Part shown: positions 3,001 through 9,000 of the stretch, in pieces
Numbering within the stretch: position 1 is the stretch's first letter
Layout: each line of letters starts with the position of its first letter
Source: Acaryochloridaceae cyanobacterium VAR_48_metabat_390
GTDB lineage: Bacteria; Cyanobacteriota; Cyanobacteriia; Thermosynechococcales; Thermosynechococcaceae
DNA length: 64,000 nucleotides
Direction: 5' to 3'
Assembly (NCBI GenBank): GCA_031422435.1
Contig: JANPLU010000014.1
Span: forward strand, 1-64,000
Position numbers: made by a program

Positions 3001-6000
3001 AACTAGCATTTGTTGCGGGCTTGTTTGCATACAAAAATTCAAGCCTTCTTTGTACACAATCTAAAGTACAAAGACTGTAAAAATTCCTTAAGCGGAAAAG
3101 CAATGTAGGTCAGCGGATTTACGGTGACAACGACATTGCGAAAATCTCGTTTGGCGAGTGCGACGGTTGCCCAAGCCACCCATCGGGATGTCATGACGCC
3201 ATAGGGGTTGAGCTGGCTCTTGAAGGGGCCTAGCACCAGCTTGCGAATAATGCAGGGTGCATCTAGTCGCCGGAGGGTGATCAAGTCGCCCAGGGTTCTC
3301 TTCGATAGCTCATACAGCGGACTAAAGGCTGGGTTCACTTCTGCTTCTGAGGTATTGATCCAGAGTTCCTTGATGGCTTTATGAGAAGACTTTGTGACGG
3401 TTTCTAAAAATAGCTCAGCTAACTTCAGCGTGGAGAAGGTATTCACTTCATAGGACTTTTGGATGGCGGCACTGGTGCGATCGCCGTATACGTTCACGCC
3501 ATGGTTCAAAATCAAAATGTCAATGCTGGCGAGTCGCACTTTAAGATCTGTTTCAGCCCCAAGCTGCCAAGCCAAAACCTCAACGCCCTCTCTAACCTGT
3601 ATATTTTGATTTGTACTAATTGCCACAACCTTGGCACCCTGTACAGACAGTTCTTCCATGAGTGCCTGCCCTAGCGATCCAGAAGCGCCCGTAATGCCGA
3701 CGACTTTATTTTTAAGCGAAAGACTGGTGCCCAGAATCTTATCGACTAAAGGAATAGTTGAGCAAAAATAGGCGTTGCCTTGGTCAAAATGATGCCGCCA
3801 ATGATAGGTGCGGTTCACGCTCCACTCGGATGGAATTTCAACCAGGTCGCCAGGTTTATGGGTGAGGTCGGTTTGGAGTAGCAAACCCTGAGAACGGGCG
3901 ATCGCCGGAATCAAAAAGCCCACGGAATACAGACAGCCGAACCAGACTGATAATCCATAGGACTGGAGTAGCCCAGCGGCTACTGCCGTGATGGCAACCA
4001 TTACCAAAGCCTCCGGCACATCGTTGTACCACTGCGCTTTTTGATAGGCTTCTCGACTCGTCATCGTTAGGTCGCGACGATAGGCTTTGTGATGGAGATT
4101 ATGAAACTCCTGTAACGGCTGCCAGTAGTGTCCTGCCAAATGATAGACATCTCGTATTATCTCAGCACCCATCACAGACCCTAACCCCAGAGAACCCTGG
4201 ATCAAGAGTTCACTAGATAGCAGATTGAAATCCATCCGGTCTAAAACCGCCTTAACTTAAAATGTCAGCTTTACTTGTGTCAGTTTAACGCGATGTCTAA
4301 CCCTGCATTCGTTCGGTGACAAACGTCTTGAGTTTCTGCGTGTCTTTGCCGCGATTATGCCAGCGAGGGCTTTCTACCCCAATGTCCTGATGGTAGTCCC
4401 ACAGCTCATTCTGATAGGCATCAAAAAATTCTTTGACGGCTTGACGGTGGACTCTAAACACTGTTTCTAACACCCCTGCATTAATGGCAAAAGACTCCGA
4501 CGGATACAGACGATTCCAGTCTTTAATGCCGAGAACGATCGCCTCTGCCCGTTGAAATGCTTTGCCTGATTTAGGGCCACGGGTTTTAGAAAGGGGATTT
4601 GTGTTTGTTTGGCTTATTGCCTGTTGGGCAGGAGATAAGGACGGTGGAGGATTCTCTACAGGTGCTGTAAGGGGAGTAATTTCGTTAGGAAGGCGATCTG
4701 GGGTTAAGGGGGCAGAAGCGATGGTGAGATCGGCAATGGATTCAGGGCTGTCTGCTGCATCATCGGTTGGCTCGCTTCCGTTGAGCAGCAGCCGAAAGCG
4801 ATCTAGCTTATCTTGCGCTAGCTTTAACTTCTGCGCGAGTTCTGCGTTCTCCACCTGAAGCTGATTTAAGACTTCTGTATGGTTTCTTTGGGTTTGAGAA
4901 ACCGCCTGATCTCGCTCTAGTCTTAGCGCTAGGTTTTCTCGCTCAAGTCCTTCCACCCGACGGATAAACCAACCTGCATCAGATTCTTTACGAACCGCTT
5001 GAATCTGAGATTCAAACTCTGCCCTCAGACGCTCTAAGGCAGAAAACCACTCAGCACGCAGAGATTGAAGACCATTAGGGTTTACCACTACGGGGGCTAC
5101 TGTTTCTTGAGGTGCTTCTTGAGGTGCTTTTTGGAATACCTTATCGATGGCAGTTTTAGAATCTGTCATCATTGCTGGCGCAGGTTCGACGGACAGGGTG
5201 GTCTCATCTTCTGACACCAGTAACGTGTCTAGTGGGTTGCCTAGGGGCAACTGCTTCACCTTCGCCAACAGCACGCCCTTCTCTCGAATCAGATTCCCGT
5301 TCTCATCGCCTAGGGCAAACCGGAAATAGTGCCCCGTTGCAGGACTATCCATGACGTGCCCGAGAAAGTGCTGCACAAACACATACTCATGCTGGAGAGG
5401 AGGACAAAAAAAGTAAACTGCGATCGCCCCATACAAACTCCGCAGGTTATGCACTGAAACCGATTGCTTCCCTTCTAGGGGCGGCACTACCTGCATTAAG
5501 GCGGACGAACAGATGTTGTTGAGCTTTTGGTTGAACCGATTAAGTTCTTCAGAAAGCGCACTGCCCTTAAGCCGAGCGATCGCTTTGATTTCTGGCAATT
5601 GCCGCAGGCGGTTAATCGCTTCTAACACTTCATTTGCCGGAAAGAGCGTCACGATGTCATAGCCTTCAGACCGAGCGGTTCGGGTCTTGAGCTGACCTTC
5701 AAAGCGCAGCAAGTAGGGATGCGCTGTTAAGGAGAATGTGCCTTTTGCCATGACTTCGGCGAAGCGGCGTCCTGTCAGACCCGCGATCGCCGTTGCTAGC
5801 CACCGTGCTTCATAGATGCCGCTTTTACCCAGAAAGCCCCGCAGTAAGCTTAAGTAGCTCTCGACTGGAACCAGCCGCAGGTTTAGCTGTTTGTCTCGAT
5901 TGGTGAGCTGCGATCGCCTGTCGATGGTCTCATAAACCTCGGATGAATACTTGAGATAGGTCAGCGCCCAATGTTCAAAGCGCTCTTCATAAATGCCTGT

Positions 6001-9000
6001 GATGCGCTGCTGATAAAGATAGCGATGGCTATTGGTATCGGTGAGCGGGAGGGTTCCGTCTTCTATGGCGGCGGCGATCGCCTTTCGATAAACCGTTAAA
6101 TACTTTGCAACCGAAGCTGGAGGATACCCCTCCTCCAGCAGCTTAATCTCAGCATTACAGAGAGACTGAATCTCTATTTCTGTATTGACTTCGTGCAGTA
6201 AAGCAATAAACCCCTCCACCAACGCCTCAAGATCTGCTTTAGACAACCGCAGTCGCTTGCCCTGTTGAATGCGATCGCGAAAGTCGTCAATGATGTCGTT
6301 GCGAACCGTTTGTGACATTACGCTCATAATGCTTATTTTGACACCTCCCTGCGTCAAAAGCGCTAATCCACGACATTCTGGCTAAACAAGGACTCTGATT
6401 TTATGACAAGATTATTGCGTTTTGTTAAAAAATGACAATTTCTGACAAGTTAAACGAGATCCGTCCCCGCAAAATTGTATAAAGTGATTCATAAGGGCAG
6501 CAACGGCGGTTCTCATTTATCTGAAACTCCCACTCCTCAAGCCATTGGGGAAATAACATAAAAGTTTAAATTTGTTTTATTCTTCACAGAATTTAACAGT
6601 ACGTTTGGGGAGTAGCGCACTTTAACTTCAGATTTAACCGTTTTCCGCTTTGTTAACGCCTCTCAATCACGCCACTGATTCAGACTGCCAAAACTTTGAC
6701 CGTTAAAGCAGCCTGAGTTGGAGCAGTCATAATCCAAGCTAATAGGAGACTCAAGACATGCTAGACGCATTTGCAAAGGTTGTAGCCCAAGCCGACGCTC
6801 GGGGTGAGTATATCAACGATTCTCAACTTGATGCTCTTTCCGCAATGGTTGCTGATGGCAGCAAGCGGATTGATACTGTTAACCGCATCACTGGCAACGC
6901 TTCTGCCATTGTTGCCAATGCAGCTCGCTCTTTGTTTGCAGAACAGCCTCAGTTGATTGCTCCTGGTGGAAACGCCTACACCAACCGTCGTATGGCTGCT
7001 TGCCTTCGCGATATGGAAATTATTCTTCGCTATGTGACCTATGCAATTTTCACCGGCGATGCCAGCATTCTAGATGACCGCTGCCTCAATGGCCTGCGCG
7101 AAACCTACCTTGCCCTTGGCGTTCCTGGCAGCTCTACTGCAACGGGCGTTAGCAAGATGAAGGAAGCTGCAATCGCAATTGCAAACGACAAGGCTGGCAT
7201 CACTCAAGGTGACTGCAGCGCACTGATGGCTGAAGTCGCAACCTACTTCGACCGCGCAGCGAGTGCTGTGGGTTAGTTTTAGCAAACCTTTTCTTTTGCT
7301 AAAGCGCCTTTCTTCGCATTCGTTGATAAGGGTGCGAACTCATGCATAACGAATTAAACCTTTTTTGTATACCCACTCGGGAGATAGCAAATCAATGAAA
7401 ACTCCATTAACCGAAGCCGTTTCCGCAGCTGATTCTCAAGGACGTTTCCTCAGCAGCACTGAACTCCAAGTTGCGTTTGGTCGCTTCCGTCAGGCTGCTC
7501 CTAGCCTTCAGGCTGCTAAGGCTTTGTCTGCTAAGGCTGGTACTTTGGCTGAGGGTGCTGCAAATGCCGTCTACCAAAAATTCCCGTACACCACCAGCAT
7601 GCAGGGTGCAAACTATGCTTCTACCCCAACCGGTAAAGCAAAGTGTGCGCGTGACATCGGCTACTACCTCCGCATGATCACCTACTGCCTAGTTGCAGGT
7701 GGCACAGGTCCTATGGATGACTACCTCGTAGCTGGTTTGGCTGAAATCAACAGCACCTTTGAACTATCCCCTAGCTGGTATGTTGAAGCGCTGAAGTATA
7801 TCAAGGCGAACCACGGTCTTTCCGGCGACTCTGCTACCGAAGCCAATTCCTACATTGACTATGCTATCAATACCCTCAGCTAAGTCTTTGACTTAAGCCA
7901 AGGCGCGATTGTTTAGCGTTGTCTTTTGACAAAAGAAAGGGTGTCAACTTCTACAAGAGGTTGGCACCCTTTGCTTTTAGCGATTGAACTCAAGCTGGCT
8001 GTTCCGAGTTTTGCTAACCCATAGTACTGCGATCGCACTCACCCACGAAAATAGCCCGACGCTCCACCCTAAAAAGAGGGGAAGTTGGTTTGCATAGGAC
8101 ATATAAACGTTAAACAGCGCCCCTGCAAGGGCAGCGCCACCAAAGTAAAAGCCAATGCCTAAGCCACCCCTAGACAGTGGCACCATCATGAGAGCAAAGG
8201 GGATAGTCGCAACCCCAACCCCACTCATGCCTAAGCCCAATAGCAGCACCGCGACGAAGCGAACCGTTGACAGTGGCACCATTAATGTCCCCAACCCAAG
8301 CCCAAGCAGTCCTAACCCCAGCATCATTGTGGGGATATTGCCCCATCGCTGTGCGGCTCTGCCAATGGGCAACACCGTCACCAACTGTACGGTCAAAAAT
8401 AAAGTCATCAGCACGGGGGTTTGGGCTTGACCAAACACGCCAATTAGCTGCTGCATCAAAATCACGCCGAGGGTTACGGTGCTTCCGGTCAGGGCGATTA
8501 AGCTGAGGTTTGACCTAGACGGGGGCGGGGAGTCGGCGGCGATCACCGATAAATTCGTTTGAGTGGGCTGACTCCAGTTGAGGAGGGTGGCTGAGAGCAG
8601 CAAGATGATTGAGCTAATGCCAAAGGCAGATACAGCACCCATCCCCTGCAAAATTTGTTTAGAGGCAGGTAAGGCTAAAGTTCCGGCAATGGTGCCAACC
8701 AGCGTTAGTACGCTTGCCGCGTAAGGCCAGTCTTGTTGACAGGCAAATTCTCCTAGTCGAGCCAGCATGGGGGAGCGAAACATCGCCATTGCCATCGCCC
8801 AAAGTATAACAGCGCCGACAAAGAGCCACCGCAGAACGCTTTCAGGGTTGCCCAGCAGTATCATAATCGGCAGAAATAGCAGTAGCACCGAGGCCAGCAG
8901 AACGCCAATAGTGACAAAGGGCGCTCGTAAGCCCCATAGGGTCTTTTGACGATCTGACAAGCTGCCAAAGAGTGGCTCAATTAAAACCGCCAAAAACCCC

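Follow-up and report, generated by a model that had tools for sequence, protein, structure and literature searches.

The genome of Acaryochloridaceae cyanobacterium VAR_48_metabat_390 (G000, assembled in 136 contigs) carries a gene that, judged by its sequence, is an intact protelomerase (telomere resolvase) under purifying selection. We consider it likely that this organism's main chromosome is linear, its ends being covalently closed hairpins, and that this gene is the resident telomere resolvase. For the closed congener G009 a linear main chromosome with hairpin ends is highly probable. In relatives, mirror repeats lie opposite dnaA, and their main chromosomes are therefore likely linear. 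We infer that these mirrors are hairpins and that the window (the whole 64,000-nucleotide stretch analysed) would lie some tens of kb from an end in G000.

Results

The open reading frame of the protelomerase, 4297-6357 on the minus strand, encodes 686 amino acids from a TTG at 6357. Comparison with G007 and G001 indicates that the gene probably starts at the ATG at 6327 (4297..6327, 676 amino acids), because the frame from the TTG is not kept in G007. Its assignment draws on the reading frame, Pfam, and PDB sequence and fold matches. The PF16684 model matches residues 159-347 with an E-value of 2.4e-52 (177.6 bits against a cut-off of 27), and Pfam, PDB and alignment place the ResT/TelK catalytic domain at 5317..5883 on the minus strand. 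With residues counted from TTG 6357, the full catalytic set R, K, R, H, Y is found on this strand as R198 (5764-5766), K224 (5686-5688), R306 (5440-5442), H334 (5356-5358) and the nucleophile Y344 (5326-5328), together with H303 (5449-5451). K224, R306 and H334 were assigned from what we take to be the remaining reference catalytic residues. R198 and Y344 align with R255 and Y405 of TelA, which passages of PMC3558466 describe as the active-site arginine and the nucleophile. The closest PDB matches are TelK and TelA, and all eight structure matches at E<=0.001 are TelA, TelK or ResT entries, indicating a TelA/TelK-like fold; the TelA equivalog NF052462 was not reached (42 bits against a curated 800).

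The AlphaFold2 model predicts a long helical, coiled-coil-like segment (4783..5079, minus strand; helices 417-515 of the 676-residue chain) flanked by two low-confidence linkers, and a C-terminal helical domain (4300..4590, minus strand; pLDDT 88.8). The latter weakly matches the C-terminal domain of TelK (residues 456-527; VIA-align Z 4.3, rmsd 3.4, 63 aligned, rank 2 of 48,161), and a search of the ESM Atlas with it returned only an unnamed cluster at 0.89. G000 holds one copy of the gene. Its dN/dS over residues 1-342 is 0.079 against G007 and 0.090 against G001, similar to that of the adjoining desaturase (0.079), and rises to 0.128-0.135 over the whole protein. The Pfam match, the complete residue set and a dN/dS of about 0.08 bear out the intact telomere resolvase with catalytic motifs reported in an earlier note on this DNA. 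The enzyme is predicted to resolve palindromic junctions into two hairpins. A promoter scan gave 5 sites against 3.5 expected, which is uninformative.

Directly downstream of the protelomerase lies a sterol desaturase/short-chain dehydrogenase gene (3039..4235, minus strand; NF005653 over cut-off), followed by serC, encoding phosphoserine transaminase (1832..2995, plus strand; NF002841 and TIGR01365 over cut-off). On the other side, cpcB and cpcA (6758..7883, plus strand) are divergent from it, and cpcE, cpcF, an HTH gene, a GGDEF/EAL gene, cpcG and a cpcS-like gene occupy 12387..20631; the cpcS-like label is our assumption, NCBIfam assigning no family to this gene. No phage or plasmid genes lie beside the protelomerase, there is no upstream TnsB-TnsC-TniQ operon of the PAST kind, and the neighbours are housekeeping genes. 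Across G000, TniQ was found neither by protein search nor by PF06527, and TnsC had no match. The statement that transposon genes are missing here thus holds for TnsBCQ but not in full, since an ISAzo13-family insertion sequence with a partial second copy (51..1666, plus strand) lies 3 kb away. The complete element (51-1386) has 29-nt inverted ends at 51-79 and 1358-1386 and its transposase in two reading frames, and the contig edge falls 50 bases past it, in the direction in which G009 has its telomere. The desaturase also adjoins the protelomerase in G001, G002, G007 and G009; cpc and serC lie near it in G002, G006 and G009, and serC is sited away from it in G003, G004, G007 and G008. The five congeners said to share the serC/desaturase/cpc neighbourhood are therefore a union, and the arrangement is only partly shared.

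The long mirror claimed for the closed congener was reproduced. In G009, where dnaA stands at the contig start, it spans 2,340,000-2,462,436 with arms of 61 kb and is centred at 2,401,211, 30 kb from the protelomerase and 0.415 of the length from dnaA. It holds cpcBA, serC and the protelomerase, so that cpcBA belongs to the terminal repeat there; ffh, ileS and ispF flank it, and its outer boundary falls within the 3' end of cpcG. Both outer adjacencies (cpcS-like/EAL and HAD/cpcG) are present in G002, and HAD-cpcG in G001. The idea that both flanks lead to arms in G002 failed: the cpcS-EAL side continues into core genes. The centre, described earlier as a perfect palindrome, is an odd one with one unpaired base and a short duplication 50 bp away. 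The arms differ almost solely by homopolymer indels, the left boundary coincides with a round number (2,340,000), and an 8.2-kb inversion in one arm is unexplained; assembly may therefore account for how long the repeat is. The tip region is decayed PAST-like cargo; no TniQ was found in G009, and a 224-residue tip-side reading frame had no usable ESM Atlas match. The sequencing data found comprise four runs of one study, none listed as RNA, from distant relatives that share 0.10-0.15 of words. Over the tip side of G009 they cover a sugar-transferase cluster in short contigs and the tip hardly at all, and so have no bearing on hairpins; at the four places checked they carry the base present in the left arm and absent from the right.

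We found a tip family shared within the genus, TTTTTC(T)TGT-W-ACA(A)GAAAAA. The exact pattern occurs once each in three of the 48 family genomes (G009, G002 and G003) and is absent from 6 of the 9 congeners; a reversed control occurs in 0 of 48. In G002 contig C423, which carries a PAST-like transposon with TnsC and TniQ, begins at base 1 with the tip as a fold-back of 10 bases. The claim that no locus carries TnsBCQ stands for TniQ in G000 and G009, but C423 bears both TnsC and TniQ with the same tip. Likewise, the gene lies outside any transposon as proposed, but the telomere does not, the tip region of G009 being a remnant of PAST-like cargo in common with G002. In G003 the tip joins arms only 86% alike on a conjugative-plasmid contig that bears the protelomerase, and this junction is assembled as continuous L-R sequence. 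In G001, G003, G004 and G008 the contigs that bear tip-adjacent sequence are plasmid-like or mobile. The centre is even in G019 and G266, in four draft loci and on two named plasmids. Since each odd tip equals an even palindrome minus one base, the odd tip is possibly a read-through error. For this reason, and because single unpaired tip bases have already been described in Borrelia, the odd centre was rejected as new chemistry.

A mirror scan of closed genomes bearing a protelomerase extended these findings to other lineages. In G107, a single-contig genome of another family, perfect arms of 3,079 bp with one protelomerase in each lie between dnaG and cydAB, 0.451 from dnaA, and the centre is AT-rich, non-coding and beside the protelomerase. 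The closed genome G019, of the sister genus, has a mirror with arms of at least 13.5 kb, 0.472 from dnaA, and the G041 contig starts about 190 bases from a homologous tip, 0.48 of the length from dnaA. With G009, four relatives thus have mirrors or ends roughly opposite dnaA. Among plasmids, pGLO7428.02, deposited as linear, folds back at its end, and a Gloeocapsopsis plasmid deposited as circular has a 1,738-bp mirror.

In G000 itself, a palindrome scan of all 136 contigs and all 272 contig ends gave no convincing telomere, and nothing convincing came from BLAST with seven tip-side sequences, from exact and 2-mismatch tip patterns or from a search for long inverted repeats within contigs; nor was a sub-telomeric homologue found. 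This agrees with the caveat, raised earlier, that no telomere is visible in this fragmented assembly. One contig end folds back (C11), presumably as a common cyanobacterial repeat. Internal palindromes include an odd one with 8-bp arms at C33:19110 and one with 35-bp arms at C39:2591. When G000 was searched for the plasmid genes of G003, the sole matches were to rep and, weakly, to ParA, with neither TrwC nor a coupling protein; its plasmids may have been lost in binning.

The G009 enzyme has a catalytic half of another subfamily, 52-59% identical, at the same desaturase/cpc locus. The C-terminal domain of the protelomerase follows the host tree and the catalytic half does not. For the C-terminal domain alone, the other grouping was not excluded by an AU test (p 0.059). 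At the level of its sequence the protelomerase is a mosaic protein whose catalytic half was swapped in place in G009. Because this half differs, the G009 tip may not be a substrate of the G000 enzyme; the exchange fits a joint turnover of telomere and enzyme.

A protelomerase match is present in 9 of 9 congeners and, at E<=1e-50, in 17 of 48 family genomes, as counted before; 28 of 48 match at E<=0.001, and 91 of 401 genomes of the class have a Pfam match. Among 14 control genomes, Synechococcus elongatus, whose chromosome is circular, is also matched by the Pfam model; the matches of family f6 are weak (E about 1e-7). Conservation in all species holds for the match but not for an intact chromosomal gene. 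The only copy found in G003, 81% identical to that of G000 over residues 126-352, sits on the conjugative-plasmid contig, with no chromosomal copy in this genome (94% complete; serC 94% identical to that of G000); the G005 copy is broken across two frames, and those of G004 and G008 occupy other chromosomal sites. Extra, broken or catalytically altered copies occur in G001, G004, G006, G008 and G018. Plasmids carry the closest named homologues, and two of these plasmids are deposited as linear; a related-locus search of genome contigs gave two loci only.

Discussion

The linear main chromosome proposed in the earlier note is supported in G009; in G000 no tip was found, and the support does not extend to the genus as a whole. 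The tip at the G002 contig end and on the G003 plasmid, and the mirrors of G019 and G107, are support that the note did not have. Counting against it are the lack of any tip, mirror or sub-telomeric homologue in G000 and of an exact tip in 6 of 9 congeners, the plasmid-like or mobile setting of the tip-adjacent sequence, the missing chromosomal copy in G003, the irregular arms of G009, the cpcS-EAL side of G002 that leads to core genes, and the Pfam match in Synechococcus elongatus. In the mechanism we propose, replication would start near dnaA in mid-chromosome and run round both hairpins, producing palindromic junctions. A dimer of the enzyme would cut both strands with a stagger through tyrosine Y344 and reseal the halves as hairpins, as judged from TelA, TelK and TelT. 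Assemblers would then join the linear chromosome at its tips and present it as a circle, leaving the mirror opposite dnaA in G009, G019 and G107. In this genus one tip family is common to a chromosome, a PAST-like transposon and a conjugative plasmid, and the catalytic, DNA-reading half has been exchanged at the desaturase/cpc locus. More broadly, and with the balance about even, the main chromosomes of several lineages (this genus, its sister and one further family or more) may be linear with hairpin ends but filed as closed contigs joined through their telomeres, with chromosome, conjugative plasmids and PAST transposons trading telomeres, the resolvase following by in-place swaps of its catalytic half, and odd tips flipping A/T.

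The strongest competing explanation, which we regard as unlikely but serious, is that the chromosomal gene serves linear plasmids and the ends of PAST elements in trans, that the G000 main chromosome is circular, and that a linear form arose only in some species, such as G009, through capture of a mobile telomere. Where the gene lies is no proof by itself, because telA lies on the circular chromosome of Agrobacterium C58 and resT on the circular cp26, as passages of PMC13293297 and PMC12958805 respectively state. The tips on the G003 conjugative plasmid and the G002 PAST-like element, the decayed PAST-like cargo at the G009 tip, the plasmid location of the closest named homologues and the variable position of the gene within the genus all suit this explanation. 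Against it, the closed chromosomes of three lineages have mirrors or ends opposite dnaA, and the gene is under strong purifying selection in G000, G001 and G007, while G000 has few plasmid genes (subject to the possible binning loss noted above).

It is improbable that the mirrors are assembly artefacts or internal terminus palindromes of circular chromosomes, with the enzyme doing another job or none. The identical arms with long-read-type errors, the round-number boundary and the inversion in G009 would fit, as would the continuous L-R junction of G003. However, the tip is conserved in three separately assembled species and folds back at the G002 contig end, the G107 centre is AT-rich, non-coding and next to a protelomerase, and this signature recurs on a plasmid that was deposited as linear. 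Long perfect palindromes are, moreover, unstable in circular DNA. On the other side, passages of PMC9029297 call a published Acaryochloris genome circular, which favours this explanation. That a linear plasmid or phage once integrated and left the gene behind as a decaying relic is scarcely credible: the extra, broken or altered copies in relatives would suit decay, but the full-length frame, the complete active site and the lack of phage or plasmid genes beside it argue otherwise, and the desaturase-like dN/dS largely refutes it.

A chromosome that is linear and closed by hairpins thus remains our preferred reading. If true, it would explain why mid-size genomes of cyanobacteria retain protelomerases without a known target, and it would mean that some finished genomes have the wrong topology. 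The mirror opposite dnaA, seen in three closed chromosomes, is a cheap test for every finished genome. Candidate substrates are named for new enzymes, enzyme and telomere offer a natural case of changing together, and the A/T tip is a place to test the proposed flip-flop of hairpin replication.

Comparison with known systems

The literature already describes hairpin telomeres, protelomerases of cyanobacteria and secondary replicons that are linear. In the portions of the cyanobacterial literature that we found, linear replicons are secondary only, or linear chromosomes are proposed from transposon ends; a search with most subscription journals outside its reach gave no demonstrated linear main cyanobacterial chromosome. 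Cyanothece ATCC 51142 and PCC 7822 also have linear replicons, which according to passages of PMC3187577 are secondary and stand beside a large circular chromosome; a 474-kb linear element of PCC 7822 holds the closest named homologue (51.9%).

Cyanobacterial protelomerases, including TelT of the LoPAST element, are described in passages of Hsieh et al. (bioRxiv 10.1101/2024.11.13.623437). Unlike PAST genes, the G000 gene is not downstream of TnsBCQ, and these passages describe neither a mirror facing the origin in a closed chromosome that bears dnaA nor an in-place swap of the catalytic half. The comparison with TelT covers its genetic setting and published description.

TelA of Agrobacterium (PDB 4dwp, 4f43; passages of PMC3558466) and TelK of phage phiKO2 (PDB 2v6e) share fold and active site with the G000 enzyme (Foldseek E 1.7e-10 and 1.2e-9), and telA of C58 has a housekeeping location, as here. 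Identity to TelA and TelK is only about 20%, however, and the G000 protein adds the long coiled coil. The replicon that TelA serves is a chromid, present alongside a circular chromosome, and its even 6-base centre is unlike the odd tip found in relatives of G000.

A hairpin-ended linear main chromosome is textbook knowledge for Borrelia. Passages of PMC12958805 (ResT, PDB 8vs5) report wrap-around reads that yield inverted repeats; they also describe two B. lusitaniae ends at whose tip one base stays unpaired, and propose a flip-flop for it. Borrelia ResT is encoded on a circular plasmid, whereas here the gene lies on the chromosome near a putative end, the ends bear kb-long inverted repeats, and the tip is common to transposons and plasmids.

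Results

The protelomerase reading frame (4297-6357, minus strand) encodes 686 amino acids, numbered here from TTG 6357, and comparison of its 5' end with those of the congeners G007 and G001 favours a start at ATG 6327. Residues 159-347 match the Pfam ResT-TelK_cat domain (E 2.4e-52). We searched PDB sequences with the window protein and obtained six matches, TelK and TelA, and a fold search with its AlphaFold2 model, built from 16 sequences (mean pLDDT 73.5, pTM 0.39), gave eight matches at E<=0.001, all of them TelA, TelK or ResT. K224, H303, R306 and H334 are present, at what we take to be the reference positions that complete the catalytic set. 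R198 and Y344 align with R255 and Y405 of TelA, which passages of PMC3558466 describe as the active-site arginine and the nucleophile. The Pfam match and full catalytic set bear out the earlier note's claim of an intact telomere resolvase, and the product of this gene, the only protelomerase copy in genome G000, is predicted with near certainty to be an active enzyme.

Its neighbours are serC, a sterol desaturase/SDR gene, cpcBA, cpcEF, a GGDEF/EAL gene, cpcG and truB. The surroundings had been described as free of transposon genes; this holds for TniQ and TnsC, neither of which was found in G000, but an ISAzo13 element lies at 51-1386, just before the contig end. Between cpcA and cpcE (7977-12137) an MFS-like transporter, an anti-sigma/ECF sigma pair and small exported proteins are inserted, and homologues of these genes occur on a 6.6-kb contig of the congener G004 with a piece of the tip-side repeat described below. 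An island of low GC (36–43%) occupies 25990-31900 and contains large ORFs, among them one of 1,267 aa. In G001 the cpcG 3' end is present in two copies (G001:C46:6467-6652 and G001:C286:1-186) with different downstream genes.

A protelomerase match is found in 9 of 9 congeners. The Pfam model matches 28 of the 48 family genomes (17 of these at E<=1e-50), 91 of 401 genomes from the class and 14 of 301 drawn from the phylum, and none of the 13 genomes of genus g8 or the three of genus g4. Inheritance of the gene is not simply vertical. The sole G003 protelomerase shares its contig with genes for TrwC, ParA, a coupling protein and a DUF3854 replication protein, and none adjoins the serC of that genome; the G005 gene is broken across two frames; those of G004 and G008 are at other chromosomal sites; and additional copies, some with altered catalytic residues, occur in G001, G004, G006 and G008. 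The claim that all species keep the gene thus stands as to a match in each congener, but not as to its integrity or location. Similarly, of the serC/desaturase/cpc neighbourhood said to be common to five congeners, the desaturase adjoins the gene in four (G001, G002, G007 and G009), but cpc/serC are nearby only in G002, G006 and G009.

The congener G009 is a single contig of 5,791,642 bases, starting at dnaA, in which inverted copies at 2,340,000-2,401,210 and 2,401,212-2,462,436 (identity 99.86–100%) form a mirror, a long inverted repeat whose centre, or tip, would be joined hairpin telomeres. The centre reads TTTTTCTTGT-A-ACAAGAAAAA and is preceded by ~800 AT-rich non-coding bases. The arms hold orthologues of the window genes from serC through the EAL gene, together with a sugar-transferase cluster, decayed IrrE-UvrD cargo, IS256 and IS21. 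Almost all arm-to-arm differences are single-base homopolymer indels, one of which causes a frameshift in the right-arm protelomerase. An 8.2-kb piece of the right arm is reversed (G009:C1:2421429-2429627), with 4-base microhomology; the reversal breaks a glycosyltransferase ORF and is of biological or assembly origin.

At the left boundary the cpcS-like gene is joined at its stop codon to the final 58 bases of cpcG, and the right arm leads into a complete cpcG that lies behind a HAD gene. A second retrieval of the sequence across these junctions was identical to the first. Since both outer adjacencies are present in G002, and HAD-cpcG in G001, neither flank is foreign. The cpcG 3' end, where the repeat stops, is a recurrent breakpoint. 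The repeat length of 61 kb is uncertain, because the EAL side of G002 runs on into core genes and the coordinate of the left boundary is round. As a molecule, G009 is most simply read as a linear chromosome that carries terminal inverted repeats and whose tips the assembler has joined, a graph signature described for linear plasmids in passages of PMC13293297, and the G009 main chromosome is very likely linear.

The closed 4.68-Mb chromosome of G107, from another family, holds a perfect mirror (G107:C1:2110111-2116269; L217, L218) with 3,079-bp arms, an odd centre and one protelomerase per arm, flanked by dnaG, malic enzyme and cydAB. In G019, of the sister genus g11, the mirror (G019:C1:2934446-2961549; L275) has arms of at least 13.5 kb and an even centre at 2,947,997, 265 kb away from the single conserved, distant-clade protelomerase. 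The related G041 starts (G041:C1:1-400) about 190 bases from a tip homologous to that of G019, and its other end shows a 2-kb inverted copy only, with no tip. The counterpart of this tip region in G042 (G042:C22:15250-16400) is joined to DNA common to both ends of a 416-kb contig. The distance from dnaA, as a fraction of length, is 0.415 in G009, 0.451 in G107, 0.472 in G019 and 0.48 in G041; the chance of three independent lineages all falling in the last fifth of the range is ~0.2 cubed, or 0.008, a rough post hoc estimate in which all chromosomes checked for mirrors were enzyme-bearing. These four make up the set of closed chromosomes with strong matches that we examined around an end or a mirror; further near-closed genomes, G354 and G561 among them, fall outside it. 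No mirror was found within 20 kb in G029 (weak Pfam match), nor at the ends or around the gene of G011:C8.

As a positive control, pGLO7428.02, deposited as linear, terminates in an 18-base fold-back. A Gloeocapsopsis dulcis plasmid deposited as circular (NZ_CP119970.1:209323-212798; L106) contains a perfect mirror with 1,738-bp arms, 8 kb from a telomere resolvase, whose centre is the same as the pGLO7428.02 end. Fold-back ends or mirrors also lie beside protelomerases of other cyanobacteria at G418:C54, G450:C127, G470:C48, G404:C54 and G434:C78 (L244, L247, L248, L250, L254) and at the start of G266:C2, and G424:C2:914877-918168 is an inverted gene pair 0.9 Mb inside its contig; one of these loci has a two-base unpaired tip.

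The 811 bases before the G009 centre match 7 of the 10 genus genomes, the G007 match being only 40 bases on the IS side. Contig G002:C423 (L079) opens at base 1 with this tip, folded back over 10 bases, ends in TnsC and TniQ with a 131-aa ORF behind, and carries cargo 80–93% identical to the G009 remnant; it is a PAST-like element (protelomerase-associated transposon) that lacks the protelomerase. This cargo comprises IrrE-UvrD, PD-(D/E)XK, multi-ubiquitin, ThiF and DUF6527 genes. In G003:C3, TTTTTCTGT-T-ACAGAAAAA stands between two arms that are 86% alike across 1.37 kb, as expected of a linear plasmid whose two ends, left and right, have been joined, and this contig is probably a linear conjugative plasmid. 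It spans 56 kb (L077, L078, L066) and encodes TrwC, a coupling protein, ParA, an actin-like protein, a DUF3854 rep and the protelomerase. Among the 48 family genomes, the exact tip pattern has a single occurrence in each of G002, G003 and G009 and is absent from the other 45, and a reversed control pattern was never found. In G001, G004 and G008 the contigs with tip-side sequence are plasmid-like or carry toxin-antitoxin genes, and the sequence extends to their ends. The 224-aa ORF adjoining the tip (L077:4817-5488) has no Pfam or Atlas match and may be a non-coding repeat; many decayed copies lie in five of nine congeners, among them G001, G002, G004 and G008, and none in other genera among the 48 family genomes.

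The catalytic-domain tree (29 domains) places the window enzyme with copies of G001 and G003-G008 (13 rows, support 100/99), and the same-locus G002 and G009 enzymes with genera g9, g10 and g13 and the linear PCC 7822 element; the serC tree (8 genomes) unites G000, G002, G003, G007 and G009 (91/95). Compared with G002/G009, the window protein is 52–59% identical over residues 11-365 and 84–85% over residues 590-686; compared with the G004/G006/G008 chromosomal copies, it is 73–79% identical over residues 126-365 and 65–75% over residues 590-686. The AU test on the N-terminal half rejects a joint grouping of the five desaturase-locus copies (p 2e-60), and the converse test, made on the short C-terminal domain, falls short of significance (p 0.059). 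Judged from these sequences, the catalytic half of the protelomerase appears to have been swapped, in either direction. The G009 tip is one base longer per arm than the G003-type tip. The latter, rather than the G009 tip, is the best candidate substrate of the window enzyme, because the resident G003 enzyme is 81% identical to it over residues 126-352. In G000 itself, no convincing telomere emerged when every contig and contig end was scanned, when tip-side DNA was used as a BLAST query or when tip patterns were searched for, which is weak evidence since the assembly has 136 contigs.

Discussion

The earlier note had proposed a linear main chromosome for this lineage. In our explanation, which we consider probable, the resident resolvase would serve the hairpin ends of such a chromosome, and telomeres would be exchanged between chromosome, plasmids and PASTs; the G000 main chromosome is likewise probably linear. 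It is possible, though rather unlikely, that the enzyme serves plasmid and transposon ends only: according to published passages, telA and resT both reside on circular replicons and act in trans. Against this reading stand the mirrors of G009, G107 and G019, which lie on closed chromosomes. That the mirrors are artefacts or internal palindromes is very unlikely; the tip is a real sequence common to three kinds of replicon. That the window gene is a relic is scarcely credible, dN/dS over the first 342 residues being 0.079 against G007 and 0.090 against G001, similar to the adjoining desaturase (0.079).

With a resident resolvase acting on chromosome ends, the main chromosomes of this group would be linear molecules that closed assemblies conceal, and enzyme and telomere would turn over together; on both points the evidence comes from relatives only. 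A literature search, with most subscription journals outside it, found no cyanobacterium with a demonstrated linear main chromosome, and passages of PMC9029297 describe an Acaryochloris chromosome as circular. Hsieh et al. (bioRxiv 10.1101/2024.11.13.623437), in the passages available, include some cyanobacteria in their list of bacteria that have linear chromosomes and plasmids; they also review the protelomerases of cyanobacteria and demonstrate activity of TelT, the protelomerase of the LoPAST element. One sentence of PMC3558466 counts cyanobacteria among hairpin-telomere bacteria. Excerpts of other papers report linear elements alongside a circular chromosome in Cyanothece (PMC3187577), a linear plasmid inferred from the presence of a resolvase (PMC13603067), and Borrelia tips with single unpaired bases, where flip-flop is called difficult to prove (PMC12958805). 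The window enzyme is a new member of the known protelomerase family.
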